Of a stretch of 50,709 nt of DNA, positions 43,475-46,464 are shown piece by piece. The notes below the pieces were generated by a model. It was given only the letters and a program-made list of their open reading frames with translations. It was not told where the DNA came from and did not search any database. Numbering within the stretch: position 1 is the first letter of the stretch; each line of letters starts with the position of its first letter. Origin of the DNA: Escherichia phage vojen. The translations under genes and the position numbers were made by a program. The stretch is from the sequence record NC_049824.1. One strand, written 5' to 3'.

Positions 43475-43572
43475 GGATTATTATCATGTGGCGTTTGTTA
43501 CTTTTGCCCTTACCTGTTATGATGGCGATCTCTATTGTATATGTTGTCATAATGAGATAAGGAGAATTTTTG

Positions 43573-44688
43573 ATGAAGCAAATCAAAATCACAGATGAAC
43601 AATTTATCAATGAGCGCAAGCAGGGAAAGACATATAAGCAGATCGCTAATGAGTATGGTATGAACGTTCGCAGCATTGAGCGACGCGCGGCACGATTAGC
43701 AAAGCAAGGTAAAGTTACAACCATCGGATCACCTGGTTTTGGTGTTACTGGAGAATCAAAGCTAATTGATAAAGATGGCAATGTGGTTATGACATGGATT
43801 AAGACAAGTAAGGACCGCGAACAGTTAGAAGCATTAATGCAGGCCGCTATGGATGCATTTAGCGAAGAAGTTCCTCGACTTGATCCACAGCCAGAATCAC
43901 AAAAGGATTATAGCGAGACGTTATCACTGTATCCGATCTTTGACATGCACTTGGGAGCAATGGCGCATAAGCATGAATGCGGCGAGAATTGGGATACAGC
44001 AACAGCAGAGCGCGTAATGAATAATTTCATTGATTATTCCATCCAGTGCGCGCCGGATAGTGAAAAGGCTGTTTTACTGATTGGTGGTGACATGCTTCAC
44101 AGCGACGGACTGGAGGCGGTGACACCTGCAAGCGGTCACGTATTGGATCAAGATAGTCGATATGCAAAACTTGTTTATGTTGCCATCCGGTCAGTGCGTC
44201 GAGCAATTACAAAGCTGTTATCAAAACACAAAAACGTCGAGATTCAGATCATTGAAGGCAACCACGACCAAAGCGGCATGATCTGGTTGCGCGCAGCAAT
44301 GGCGGCAGCATATGAGAATGAGCCGCGAGTGCATGTTGATGTTTCTCCGCGAGTAGTTCATCACACACAGTATGGCAAAACATTCCTGGCATACCATCAC
44401 GGGCACACTATCCGCAAGCCTGAAACATTGCTCATGATGTGCGCGGCAGACTGGCGCGAAGACTTCGGCAATTCAAAAATGATGTATGCTCACGTAGGGC
44501 ATTGGCATCATCAAACAGTAACCGAAACAAGCCTGGGAATTGTTGAAGTGCATAGCACTATGGCGGCAAAAGATGCATATGCGGCGCGCGGTGGATGGCG
44601 TTCTCGCCGCCGTGCGGCTGTTATTGTTTATGATAAAGAATACGGAGAAGTGGGGCGATTTATGCATTATCCAGAAATGGCTGGTTGA
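43573..44688 (+). CDS. metallophosphoesterase with N-terminal HTH-like segment
   Basis: Calcineurin-like motifs DMH, GGDMLH, GNHD and HWHH; N-terminal TYKQIANEYGMNVRSIERRAARL; AAGGAG RBS. Confidence 0.55.
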   Translation: MKQIKITDEQFINERKQGKTYKQIANEYGMNVRSIERRAARLAKQGKVTTIGSPGFGVTGESKLIDKDGNVVMTWIKTSKDREQLEALMQAAMDAFSEEVPRLDPQPESQKDYSETLSLYPIFDMHLGAMAHKHECGENWDTATAERVMNNFIDYSIQCAPDSEKAVLLIGGDMLHSDGLEAVTPASGHVLDQDSRYAKLVYVAIRSVRRAITKLLSKHKNVEIQIIEGNHDQSGMIWLRAAMAAAYENEPRVHVDVSPRVVHHTQYGKTFLAYHHGHTIRKPETLLMMCAADWREDFGNSKMMYAHVGHWHHQTVTETSLGIVEVHSTMAAKDAYAARGGWRSRRRAAVIVYDKEYGEVGRFMHYPEMAG

Positions 44689-44731: not shown

Positions 44732-44761
44732 GGGCGTGGCATTTTGCTTCGCCCTTTTTTT
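44732..44761 (+). terminator. Rho-independent terminator
   Basis: GGGCG...CGCCC hairpin followed by TTTTTTTATT. Confidence 0.6.
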
Positions 44762-44834
44762 ATTCCTTTTTGTGCGTTCAATGGTTAGGATACAAACAAT
44801 TAATTGTTGACTTTTATATACAGGAGATCTAATC

Positions 44835-45050
44835 ATGAAAGATTTTTTAAACGCTGCAACTTCCGGCACTGGCGGCGCGTCAATCACTGGCGCGGTAACT
44901 GGTCAAACAACTATTGCAATAGCCAGCTTCGTTTTGATGGCTGCATTTGGTATGTGGGGCGCTTATCTTCGCTGGCGTGATAGTAAGGCGCTACGTGACG
45001 CGCTTGAATGCGGTGATATTAAGAAAGCTATTGAGATCAGAGGGAAATAA
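44835..45050 (+). CDS. putative holin / pinholin (71 aa, one TM segment)
   Basis: Hydrophobic segment [20 protein letters not shown]; directly upstream of the endolysin with overlapping stop/start; AGGAG RBS. Confidence 0.55.
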
Positions 45051-45538
45051 TGAGTATAAAACAAAGAGTGACCGCTGCGGCTTTTGGTGTTGCTCTTGCC
45101 CTTACTTCTCCGCTACTGGAGGAAATAGAAGGAGTAAAACATAAGCCTTACAAAGATATTGCTGGGATATGGACGGTTTGCGCCGGAATAACTGGACCTG
45201 ACGTAATACAAGGCAAAACGTACACACAAAGAGAGTGCGATGCACTACTGGCAAAGCATATTAAGATCGCAAAGGATGAAGTTGATAAGCGTGTAAAGGT
45301 TGACATTCCTGATACAATGCGCGCAGCAATGTATTCATTCACATACAATGCTGGAACTGGAGCTTTTAGAAATTCAACCATGCTTAAGCTGATTAATAGC
45401 GGTCGTTACATGGAAGCGTGCAATCAGTTATGGCGATGGACCAAGTACACAAATCCAAAAACTGGAAAGAAAGAAACGTCTAAAGGACTGCGCAACCGCC
45501 GCGCGGTGGAATTTAAATATTGCATTAAGGATCTGTAA
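45050..45538 (+). CDS. SAR endolysin (T4-lysozyme-like)
   Basis: N-terminal weakly hydrophobic signal-anchor-release-like segment; Glu, Asp and Thr spaced as in a lysozyme catalytic triad. Confidence 0.75.
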
Positions 45539-45540
45539 TT

Positions 45541-45939
45541 ATGCGAAAGTTATCACTAATCGCGATCGCTGTTATTTTGTCTGGATGTTCAAGCGTTACG
45601 CCACTGACCGGATTAATCGGTAGTAAGCCGGAAATCACAGCACAGGCAGGAGCGGAGAACGTAAAGCAGACCGTTGGCGTTACCGCAAAGCAGGACACCA
45701 GCACAAAACAGGAAACTACAATAAAGGAATCTGCTGTTGATAAGGTGGACACTTCCAGCAAGAAGGATTTCACTACGTCAACCATTCAGGCCAATACCAT
45801 CAAGGCTGATAAAATCCAGGTCGTGCAGGGTGAGCAAAGGAAGTGGTACGATCCTATGATCTATTGCGCAGCAATTTTCATTGGTATTTTGTCAATTACT
45901 TACTTTTCCTACCGCAAAGGCAACAAAAAGGAGGCTTAA
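45541..45939 (+). CDS. unimolecular spanin (T1 gp11-like)
   Basis: Lipoprotein signal with lipobox LSGC plus a C-terminal TM helix in one 132-aa protein. Confidence 0.65.
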   Translation: MRKLSLIAIAVILSGCSSVTPLTGLIGSKPEITAQAGAENVKQTVGVTAKQDTSTKQETTIKESAVDKVDTSSKKDFTTSTIQANTIKADKIQVVQGEQRKWYDPMIYCAAIFIGILSITYFSYRKGNKKEA

Positions 45940-45955
45940 CGCCTCCTTTGTTATT
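45930..45955. terminator. Bidirectional terminator at the convergence point
   Basis: GGAGGC-TTAAC-GCCTCC hairpin with flanking A- and T-runs. Confidence 0.6.
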
Positions 45956-46071
45956 CAATTCTCTTTACAGTAACAAACAAAACGCCGTCATCATCACACA
46001 AATTATGTTCTGATATGTTAAACGCTCGCATGTCAGAATGAATGAGCGTTAACATTGCGTGCATGAAGTCT

Positions 46072-46464
46072 TCATGTGAGATTGAACTTACGGCGCAGAA
46101 CTTCAATATTTTGTCTATTAGCATTTGACGTAAACAATTCTTCATCGCTCATTTCCCCGATCCGTAAAACATCCCTTACCCATTCGTTTTGCATACCTTC
46201 CAGGCTGTAAAGTTCAAACGAGAAAGGGCGATTTGCGGATCCTTTCTTACACCAGAACTTTCCACCAACTCCATCAAGATAACCAGCGGTCATCATTCTT
46301 GCGCAAAACTCTTTTGAAACGGCAGTCGCAAACATTCTCGGCGTAAATCCTGCGGCCCTTGCGAGCCGCTCACATTCTCTATGCTGAAATATAAATTTTG
46401 CGATATGTTGACGTGTAAACCATTCGAATGACTCGCACCAGCGATACAGATCCAGAAGAAACAT
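46072..46464 (-). CDS. hypothetical protein (130 aa)
   Basis: ORF adjacent downstream of the ATPase gene on the minus strand. Confidence 0.5.
   Translation of the reverse strand: MFLLDLYRWCESFEWFTRQHIAKFIFQHRECERLARAAGFTPRMFATAVSKEFCARMMTAGYLDGVGGKFWCKKGSANRPFSFELYSLEGMQNEWVRDVLRIGEMSDEELFTSNANRQNIEVLRRKFNLT

Follow-up and report, generated by a model that had tools for sequence, protein, structure and literature searches.

The lysis genes of Escherichia phage vojen (NC_049824.1; the window is the whole stretch of 50,709 nucleotides that was analyzed) most likely form the late lysis operon of a T1-like coliphage (Drexlerviridae, Hanrivervirus type) that would act through a three-step pathway of pinholin, signal-anchor-release (SAR) endolysin, and u-spanin, a reading to which we assign a probability of roughly 0.85. 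The cassette is real and already described in close relatives, and it represents the lysis module conserved in Drexlerviridae; T1-family cassettes have been described in the same three terms before (PMC6139136, PMC11447400, PMC13164509). In the ORF list of the window, it consists of three close-packed plus-strand ORFs (44835-45939) with products of 71, 162, and 132 aa (Table 1). A first-pass annotation had proposed a compact lysis cassette of holin, endolysin, and spanin here; the ORFs are listed exactly where it had placed them, and all three roles are upheld by homology to T1 gp13, gp12, and gp11.

Table 1. Features of the vojen lysis region, in window coordinates.
Feature	Coordinates	Strand	Basis
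Intrinsic-terminator-like hairpin with U-tract	44732..44761 (hairpin 44732-44754)	+	Folding, then TTTTTTT
Weak sigma-70-like promoter match, TTGACT-18-AATCAT	44807..44836	+	9/12 positions, sole match in region
Holin gene, 71 aa, T1 gp13 family (phrog_2877 / PF27028)	44835..45050	+	phrog_2877, E = 1.2e-35
Candidate releasable TMD1, holin residues 4-21, weakly hydrophobic, Gly/Ala/Ser/Thr-rich	44844..44897	+	Hydropathy
TMD2, holin residues 26-45, strongly hydrophobic, then basic C-terminal tail	44910..44969	+	Hydropathy, conservation
Endolysin gene, 162 aa, GH24 lysozyme, R21 type (predicted class II SAR endolysin)	45050..45538	+	Homology
Candidate SAR domain, endolysin residues 7-23	45068..45118	+	17-residue uncharged run
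Catalytic triad, E27-x8-D36-x5-T42	45128..45175	+	Motif conservation
Unimolecular spanin gene, 132 aa, T1 gp11 family	45541..45939	+	phrog_1804, E = 6.9e-49
Lipoprotein signal peptide, MRK + LSLIAIAVI, lipobox LSGC	45541..45588	+	Lipoprotein pattern match
Spanin C-terminal TMD, residues 105-124, then basic tail RKGNKKEA	45853..45912	+	Hydropathy, AF2
Putative bidirectional terminator hairpin over spanin stop codon	45922..45952	both	A-tract before, T-tract after

The stop codon of the holin gene and the start codon of the endolysin gene share one base (TAATG), the spanin ATG lies 2 bases past the endolysin stop, and each start is preceded by a Shine-Dalgarno-like element (AGGAG at 8 nt for the holin, GAGGG at 5 nt for the endolysin, and AAGGA at 9 nt for the spanin). 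The PHROG matches to holin (E = 1.2e-35), endolysin (1.1e-54), and Rz-like spanin (6.9e-49) are all well past chance. At least 80% of the cassette is present in 121 phage records, and its DNA is 92-98% identical to that of many Hanrivervirus genomes, in which the genes are annotated as holin, endolysin, and u-spanin. The window appears to span the entire genome of its source phage, a Hanrivervirus-like member of Drexlerviridae. The cassette is flanked upstream by a DNA repair exonuclease gene and downstream by a converging helicase gene, an arrangement reported in 508 of 522 Drexlerviridae (PMC13164509). Many Drexlerviridae lysis modules also carry an SH3 accessory gene (PMC13164509); in vojen, no plus-strand ORF of at least 30 aa is confined to the 146-bp gap between exonuclease and holin. 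The ORFs listed at this gap are overlapping, out of frame, and on either strand.

Two hairpins border the cassette, both missed by the promoter/terminator scan and confirmed by folding. The upstream hairpin has an MFE of -14.6 kcal/mol (z = -4.19), and none of 200 shuffles folds as well; this terminator-like element would close the DNA repair exonuclease gene and set the lysis cassette apart. The 3' hairpin folds at -14.9 kcal/mol on the plus strand (z = -4.0) and at -16.6 kcal/mol on the minus strand (z = -5.0). The T1 record annotates a terminator at the equivalent place, and that of phage G29-2 lists one under the match too. Judged by its folding, the 3' hairpin is the predicted end of both the cassette and the converging minus-strand genes. 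Directly upstream of the cassette, the scan gave no convincing promoter: the -10 hexamer of the one sigma-70-like match runs into the holin ATG, which makes this match doubtful, and it is not significant, shuffles of the region averaging 4.1 such matches.

The endolysin matches Pfam Phage_lysozyme (PF00959, E = 1.3e-37) and is 65% identical to T1 gp12 and 46% identical to R21 (3hde_A) along the whole length (residues 3-159, E = 1.5e-40). Of 121 sequences examined, namely the vojen protein and 120 homologues, 120 carry the triad motif, all 120 having D in second place, and E27, D36, and T42 are invariant in the endolysin alignment. In the AF2 model (pLDDT 88.6), the N-terminal helix runs unbroken into Glu27. 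The best folds for this model in Foldseek were 4zpu and 3hde (TM 0.78-0.82 over 162-165 columns); full-length R21 and RrrD, its DLP12 homologue, fit better than truncated R21 (TM 0.61). The N-terminus, previously characterized as weakly hydrophobic and Ala/Gly-rich, does fit this description: residues 7-23 form a 17-residue uncharged run, 53% Gly/Ala/Ser/Thr and without Cys, that follows K4 and R6. Each of the 120 homologues scored likewise has an uncharged run, 14-20 residues long, behind 1-3 K/R. We predict from these features that the enzyme is an R21-type (class II) endolysin with SAR behavior. A related Drexlerviridae enzyme causes azide-sensitive lysis on its own (preprint 10.64898/2026.09.09.750462).

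The same N-terminus might instead be a conventional cleavable Sec signal peptide, which would make the endolysin a soluble periplasmic enzyme controlled by membrane energization only, a reading we regard as quite improbable. Some features do resemble a signal peptide: an n-region with K4 and R6 precedes a short hydrophobic core, Ala-Leu-Ala at residues 15-17 satisfies the -3/-1 rule and could serve signal peptidase, the uncharged run is shorter and weaker than that of RrrD (17 residues, KD 1.54, versus 24 residues, KD 2.27), and SignalP recognizes the N-terminus of a related enzyme as such (preprint 10.64898/2026.09.09.750462). However, the Ala-x-Ala is not kept in the family (ALT in T1 gp12, and ALM, AMM, or ALV in others), whereas the hydrophobic segment and the (S/T)PLLEEI motif after it are conserved. 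Small-x-small motifs (AIAIAS) are found in R21 and RrrD too, and R21 is reportedly released uncleaved, in work attributed to Xu et al. in 2004 and Sun et al. in 2009. A cut at residue 17 would moreover take away the greater part of the helix ending at the catalytic Glu27, and the better fit of the model to full-length than to truncated R21 likewise argues for a retained N-terminus.

The third gene product shares 47% identity with T1 gp11 (E = 9e-37) and 100% with the protein that is called RzlA in Escherichia phage vojen; in relatives it is named u-spanin. T1 gp11 is the experimentally established prototype u-spanin; it has an identical LSGC lipobox and no periplasmic cysteine, is lipid-modified, complements lambda Rz/Rz1, and needs its lipobox Cys (PMC6139136). 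In the vojen protein, R2 and K3 make up the charged n-region, the lipobox occupies residues 13-16, and Cys16 is the predicted lipidation site (match to a lipoprotein pattern modeled on PROSITE PS51257); position +2 is Ser17 and not Asp, as expected for sorting to the outer membrane. Among the homologues, the lipobox reads LSGC in 111 of 120 and its Cys is present in 119 of 120 (the lone exception is N-terminally truncated), and Ser is found at +2 in 115 of 116. The C-terminal TMD (KD 1.92; median of the homologues 2.03) lies within an AF2 helix spanning residues 103-128 with a pLDDT of about 80-89. Residues 17-104 contain no Cys, and 115 of 116 homologues are likewise without periplasmic Cys. 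The lipobox, the C-terminal hydrophobic segment at residues 105-124, and the homology to gp11 together bear out the earlier claim of a T1-type unimolecular spanin. The AF2 monomer has an overall pLDDT of 54, falls below 50 over residues 17-76, and has no strands assigned, and is informative for its two terminal helices only. Between residues 82 and 96, a conserved I-x-A-x-x pattern that repeats every five residues hints at strands; the periplasmic domain of gp11 has been described as beta-strand-dominated (PMC6139136). A Pfam search with the spanin returned no family, and in the NCBIfam search with holin and spanin every match was under its cut-off.

That the third gene encodes a Cor-like superinfection-exclusion protein or another outer-membrane lipoprotein, and not a spanin, is hardly credible. 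Behind this idea stand a weak hit to Cor in PHROG (phrog_1119, E = 2.6e-05) and several GenBank records that label the homologue just 'lipoprotein'. Yet the Cor match covers residues 1-63 only, whereas the Rz-like spanin family is matched over the full length and far more strongly, and the C-terminal TMD is conserved. The gene closes the lysis cassette, and T1, whose gp11 complements the lambda Rz/Rz1 defect (PMC6139136), has a distinct cor gene at another place in its genome. We therefore rejected a Cor-like lipoprotein as the product of gene 3 on the strength of the spanin-family match and the homology to T1 gp11, and retain the u-spanin assignment.

The holin is 59% identical to T1 gp13; PF27028 was present on all holin hits, and relatives annotate the protein as a holin. 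Its family (PF27028 / phrog_2877) is narrow: 1.84 billion representatives include just 8 clusters of it at 50% identity. The first-pass annotation had assumed one transmembrane segment, and this count needs correction: a single 42-residue uncharged stretch contains two hydrophobic segments, a weak one at residues 4-21 (KD 0.76 per residue, 72% Gly/Ala/Ser/Thr) and a stronger one at residues 26-43 (KD 1.79), and from its sequence a two-segment (class II) protein is probably the better reading of the holin. In the first segment, F4, T9, and A20 never vary in either of two alignments, whereas G13 and G14 are each fixed in one alignment and reach at least 90% conservation in the second. In TMD2, A28, S31, M35, F38, G39, G42, and A43 are invariant. 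Only TGQT, and no charged loop, links the two segments, leaving little room for a helical hairpin, and the C-terminal tail (8 K/R, 5 D/E) is predicted to be cytoplasmic.

Pinholins, with S21-68 as the prototype, form small (about 2 nm) holes that depolarize the membrane and do not pass the endolysin. The vojen holin is near-identical in hydropathy to EssD, a phage 21-type pinholin (0.76 / 1.79 versus 0.74 / 1.87), and its gene adjoins and start/stop-overlaps an R21-type endolysin gene, a pinholin-like genetic pairing. By analogy, we predict a pinholin-like, class II holin; the label 'pinholin' rests on analogy because the holin could not be related in sequence to S21/EssD, the pinholin of phage 21: BLASTP gave no alignment and hhalign a probability of 0.2%. 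The claim that no separate antiholin is evident also stands at the sequence level: the only in-frame starts are codons 1, 34, 35, and 40, leaving no dual-start motif or second start near the N-terminus, and upstream a stop lies 9 codons away with no start in between. A Pfam match to DUF3262 (19.8 bits versus a cut-off of 27) was sub-threshold and treated as compositional.

Less likely, in our view, is a single-pass holin (N-out, C-in) with a flexible Gly/Thr-rich periplasmic N-terminal arm, which could make canonical large holes or trigger by a different mechanism. The hydropathy of residues 4-21 is under the usual TM threshold, the T1 GenBank record states 'contains single transmembrane domain', the short linker lacks any charged or polar loop, and homology to phage 21 S is absent, all of which would suit a single pass. 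However, TMD1 of the phage 21-type pinholin is equally low in hydropathy (0.74) and similar in composition, and it is by experiment the releasable TMD. The entire 42-residue stretch is uncharged and highly conserved, and the holin begins with M-K-D, much as the shorter (S21-68-type) form of the pinholin begins with M-D-K (EssD residues 4-6). A large-hole holin is also unnecessary because the partner is an R21-type endolysin, and specialist annotators place the holin in class II pinholins, as they call those of T1 and TLS (PMC11447400, PMC6139136). In the literature on gp13-family holins, we found no experimental topology or hole-size data. There is a small chance that these holins constitute a distinct class, whose members might, for example, cross the membrane once and carry a conserved periplasmic arm rich in glycine and threonine, or contain a re-entrant segment; if true, the triggering of SAR endolysins would have arisen in this class independently. 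The idea of a distinct class leans on the unrelatedness to the phage 21 pinholin, the fusion of the segments without a charged loop, and the lack of a dual start.

In the pinholin, SAR-endolysin, and u-spanin pathway that we favor, the lysozyme would be exported by Sec and tethered in the inner membrane through its uncleaved residues 7-23, inactive while tethered, and the holin would build up in the same membrane with both of its hydrophobic segments. At a fixed moment, the weak N-terminal segment of the holin would exit the bilayer and TMD2 would oligomerize into small holes, collapsing the membrane potential. Depolarization would then release the N-terminal segment of the endolysin, which, like that of R21, would refold onto the catalytic domain and position Glu27, and the peptidoglycan would be degraded, an activity that follows from homology. 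By homology too, the u-spanin would be anchored in the outer membrane by lipid on Cys16 and in the inner membrane by its C-terminal helix; once out of the peptidoglycan meshwork, it would disrupt the outer membrane, probably via fusion of both membranes, a job demonstrated for T1 gp11 (PMC6139136). Gene structure, homologies, motifs, and conservation were observed directly, and from them we infer export, tethering, release, and hole size.

Little of this is new, given that near-identical genomes already annotate holin, endolysin, and u-spanin and that the prototype spanin, T1 gp11, has been studied experimentally. What is gained is a confirmation of the earlier reading and a corrected transmembrane count for the holin. 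As the pinholin and SAR assignments in the T1 family rest mainly on prediction, the holin is a cheap experimental target.

Among named systems, 57_3Lys of phage vB-EcoS_57-3 is a class II SAR endolysin of Drexlerviridae from the same family, whose lysis is azide-sensitive and holin-independent (preprint 10.64898/2026.09.09.750462). Compared by motif and N-terminal segment, 57_3Lys resembles the vojen endolysin in its E-x8-D-x5-T motif near residue 26-27 and in a Cys-free, moderately hydrophobic N-terminal segment, but it comes from another subfamily (Braunvirinae) and differs in N-terminal sequence. With phage 21 and DLP12, vojen shares a true endolysin homologue (R21/RrrD; 46% identity from the SAR region to the C-terminus, with the E-D-T triad in common), whereas the holin matches S21/EssD in length (71 aa) and in its weak-then-strong two-segment hydropathy but lacks sequence homology and the dual-start motif. 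The vojen SAR run is shorter (17 versus 24 residues), as is the linker (by 6 residues), and the outer-membrane step is assigned to a one-piece spanin in vojen and to the two-component RzpD/RzoD pair in the phage 21 / DLP12 system.

Phage T1 (genes 13-12-11) has the same gene order and nearly the same product sizes (71/71, 162/162, and 132/133 aa in vojen/T1, at 59, 65, and 47% identity). In both phages the lipobox reads LSGC, the holin and endolysin genes overlap by one base, and a terminator sits at the stop codon of the spanin gene; the spanins have diverged in their periplasmic and TMD sequences, and the endolysin-spanin junction is a 2-base gap in vojen and a one-base overlap in T1. Between exonuclease and holin, T1 carries an HNH endonuclease gene and a small gene (SH3 protein, PMC13164509), unlike vojen, which has just 146 bp with a terminator. 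Close relatives are the Hanrivervirus / Tempevirinae phages KarlJaspers, SFP17, egaa, herni, and G29-2, in which the cassette DNA is 96-98% identical, the flanking genes are the same, and the annotations read holin, endolysin, and u-spanin / RzlA / Rz-like spanin. The genes immediately downstream of the cassette differ between KarlJaspers and vojen; the cassette itself differs from those of these relatives by point changes only.

The lysis genes of Escherichia phage vojen form a compact cassette of holin, endolysin and spanin, for which a pinholin, signal-anchor-release (SAR) endolysin and u-spanin pathway is the best-supported model. In this pathway, the endolysin would be exported and held at the membrane in an inactive form; triggering of the holin would then depolarise the membrane, upon which the N-terminal segment of the endolysin would be freed and refold to give an active enzyme, and degradation of the wall would be followed by fusion or disruption of the outer membrane by the spanin. 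The analysis itself shows the gene structure, the homologies and the motifs with their conservation; the export and tethering of the endolysin, the size of the holes and the lipidation of the spanin are predictions from homologues and the literature.

Features of the lysis cassette and its surroundings, with the hydropathy per residue (KD) of the holin segments and of those of EssD, a phage 21-type pinholin of E. coli K-12
Feature	Position	Strand	Details
Exonuclease ORF as listed	43570-44688	+	TTG start
Upstream hairpin	44732-44754		-14.6 kcal/mol, z = -4.2; then U-tract
Holin gene	44835-45050	+	71 aa
Endolysin gene	45050-45538	+	162 aa
Spanin gene	45541-45939	+	132 aa
Spanin five-residue periodicity	45784-45828		residues 82-96
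Spanin Cys109	45865-45867		inside C-terminal TMD
Downstream hairpin	45922-45952		bidirectional, -14.9 and -16.6 kcal/mol, z = -4.0 and -5.0; overlaps spanin stop
phrog_9539	45951-46145	-	64 aa
phrog_2794	46072-46464	-	130 aa
Holin weak segment	residues 4-21		KD 0.76; 72% Gly/Ala/Ser/Thr
Holin strong segment	residues 26-43		KD 1.79; candidate TMD2
EssD TMD1	residues 11-28		KD 0.74
EssD TMD2	residues 37-54		KD 1.87

The three genes proposed in the first-pass annotation recur at exactly the same positions in the ORF list. The stop codon of the holin overlaps the start codon of the endolysin by a single base (TAATG), the spanin ATG follows the endolysin stop after a gap of 2 nt, and a Shine-Dalgarno-like element lies 5-9 nt upstream of all three starts. 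A hairpin flanks the cassette on either side; a consensus scan detected neither, and the scan for promoters returned a single weak promoter-like site, a chance-level match overlapping the holin ATG. Upstream lies a DNA repair exonuclease gene (phrog_704) and downstream a convergent helicase gene. The listed exonuclease start is directly followed by an ATG codon, and since the product annotated in relatives (1116 bp) is shorter by one residue, the true start is probably this ATG at 43573. The conserved hypothetical genes phrog_9539 and phrog_2794 share 74 nt in different reading frames; the identical overlap is annotated in Shigella phage SFP17, and another gene pair occupies this position in the relative KarlJaspers.

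Class II SAR endolysins have R21 of phage 21 as their prototype, and the vojen endolysin is an R21 homologue in sequence and fold. The protein matches Pfam Phage_lysozyme (1.3e-37), and the nearest solved structures by sequence are those of full-length R21 (3hde, E = 1.5e-40) and of RrrD (4zpu), the R21 homologue of DLP12. The R21 alignment starts at residue 3, and so includes the N-terminal hydrophobic region; the linker is shorter by a 6-residue deletion. The triad E27-x8-D36-x5-T42 occurs in 120 of 121 sequences (the window protein and 120 homologues), each of its residues being invariant in a 67-sequence alignment. The N-terminus, which had been read as SAR-type from its composition, holds up well: residues 7-23 form an uncharged run of 17 (53% Gly/Ala/Ser/Thr, no Cys) preceded by K4 and R6, and a run of 14-20 residues after 1-3 K/R was present in all 120 homologues scored. 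The RrrD segment is longer and more hydrophobic (24 versus 17 uncharged residues; KD 2.27 versus 1.54). Ala-Leu-Ala at residues 15-17 could in principle serve as a signal peptidase site; the family does not conserve the motif, which is Ala-Leu-Thr in gp12, the T1 endolysin. In the AF2 model (pLDDT 88.6), helix 3-27 terminates at the catalytic Glu, and the fit is closer to full-length R21/RrrD (TM 0.78-0.82, 162-165 columns) than to truncated R21 (TM 0.61). T1 gp12 and TLS Gp68 have been termed predicted SAR endolysins (PMC11447400), and lysis by a related Drexlerviridae enzyme is reported to be azide-sensitive and holin-independent (2026 preprint, 10.64898/2026.09.09.750462). Given the R21 homology, the conserved N-terminal run, the AF2 fit and this literature, the SAR prediction is well supported.

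The third product matches PHROG Rz-like spanin family 1804 (6.9e-49) and carries both the lipoprotein signal and the C-terminal TM helix previously noted: a lipobox, LSGC, at residues 13-16 after R2, K3 and a hydrophobic core, with Ser at +2, and a hydrophobic helix at 105-124 followed by RKGNKKEA. LSGC is found in 111 of 120 homologues, the remaining full-length ones having LTAC, ISGC, LTGC or LPGC. Among the 116 with a recognised lipobox, 115 have Ser at +2, 115 lack periplasmic Cys, and the C-terminal TMD has a median KD of 2.03. Complementation of a lambda Rz/Rz1 defect by T1 gp11, the prototype u-spanin, has been described together with mutational testing of the gp11 lipobox (PMC6139136). 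The AF2 model gives the 88-residue periplasmic domain no confident structure and does not confirm the beta-rich architecture described for gp11; to bridge the periplasm, these residues would have to be largely extended. A Cor-like match (2.6e-05) is weak, limited to the signal-peptide half and no rival to the spanin assignment. Shortly before the C-terminal TMD is a conserved periodicity, I-Q-A-N-T / I-K-A-D-K / I-Q-V-V-Q, common to T1 gp11, in which I82, A84, I87 and A89 are invariant across the family and conservation of I92 reaches at least 90%. Cys109 is kept in closer relatives and T1 gp11 (VVCW), but not in distant members.

The holin matches PHROG holin family 2877 (1.2e-35), and all its database homologues carry PF27028; the family is narrow, with only 8 clusters matched when a profile was searched against 1.84 billion representative proteins. 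The first-pass annotation, like the T1 GenBank record, described a one-TM protein; we found instead two hydrophobic segments within 42 uncharged residues (4-45), linked only by TGQT. Conservation is high in the weak segment: both alignments keep F4, T9, A20 and Q24 without exception, and G13, G14 and T22 are each invariant in one of them, with at least 90% conservation in the other. With 8 K/R, the C-terminal tail is predicted to be cytoplasmic. As had been noted, no antiholin is evident: the holin has a single start, with neither a dual-start motif nor an in-frame start upstream, and no candidate gene adjoins the cassette. Elsewhere in the gp13 (T1 holin) family, two nearby Met codons in P0267 (MMRDF) and TLS Gp67 (M1RDFLLM7; PMC11447400) suggest a possible dual-start antiholin in these phages.

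Database relatives include RzlA [Escherichia phage vojen], which is 100% identical to the window spanin, and many Hanrivervirus genomes (Drexlerviridae, Tempevirinae) with 92-98% cassette DNA identity; in KarlJaspers the genes are annotated as holin, endolysin and u-spanin. Twenty GenBank records (MG065638-MG065685) named 'Campylobacter phage', host Campylobacter jejuni, carry the cassette at 93-95% identity; MG065643.1 (locus L005) is flagged UNVERIFIED, classified as Hanrivervirus and without annotation. These appear to be genomes of T1-like coliphages that were assigned to Campylobacter.

The exonuclease-holin-endolysin-spanin order reportedly forms a persistent module (508/522 Drexlerviridae), and a stand-alone SH3 gene adjoins many of these cassettes (PMC13164509); it is absent here, as the exonuclease-holin gap is only 146 bp. 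The holin's hydropathy profile nearly equals that of EssD, and its two-segment pattern agrees with the published class II pinholin assignment (PMC11447400; PMC6139136). Because we found no sequence homology to EssD or S21, this resemblance is one of analogy, and the holin is pinholin-like on paper, outside the phage 21 S family. Phage T1 has the equivalent trio in matching order (genes 13, 12 and 11; 59%, 65% and 47% identity for holin, endolysin and spanin), and by every feature tested the cassette is a member of the already known T1 lysis-cassette family.
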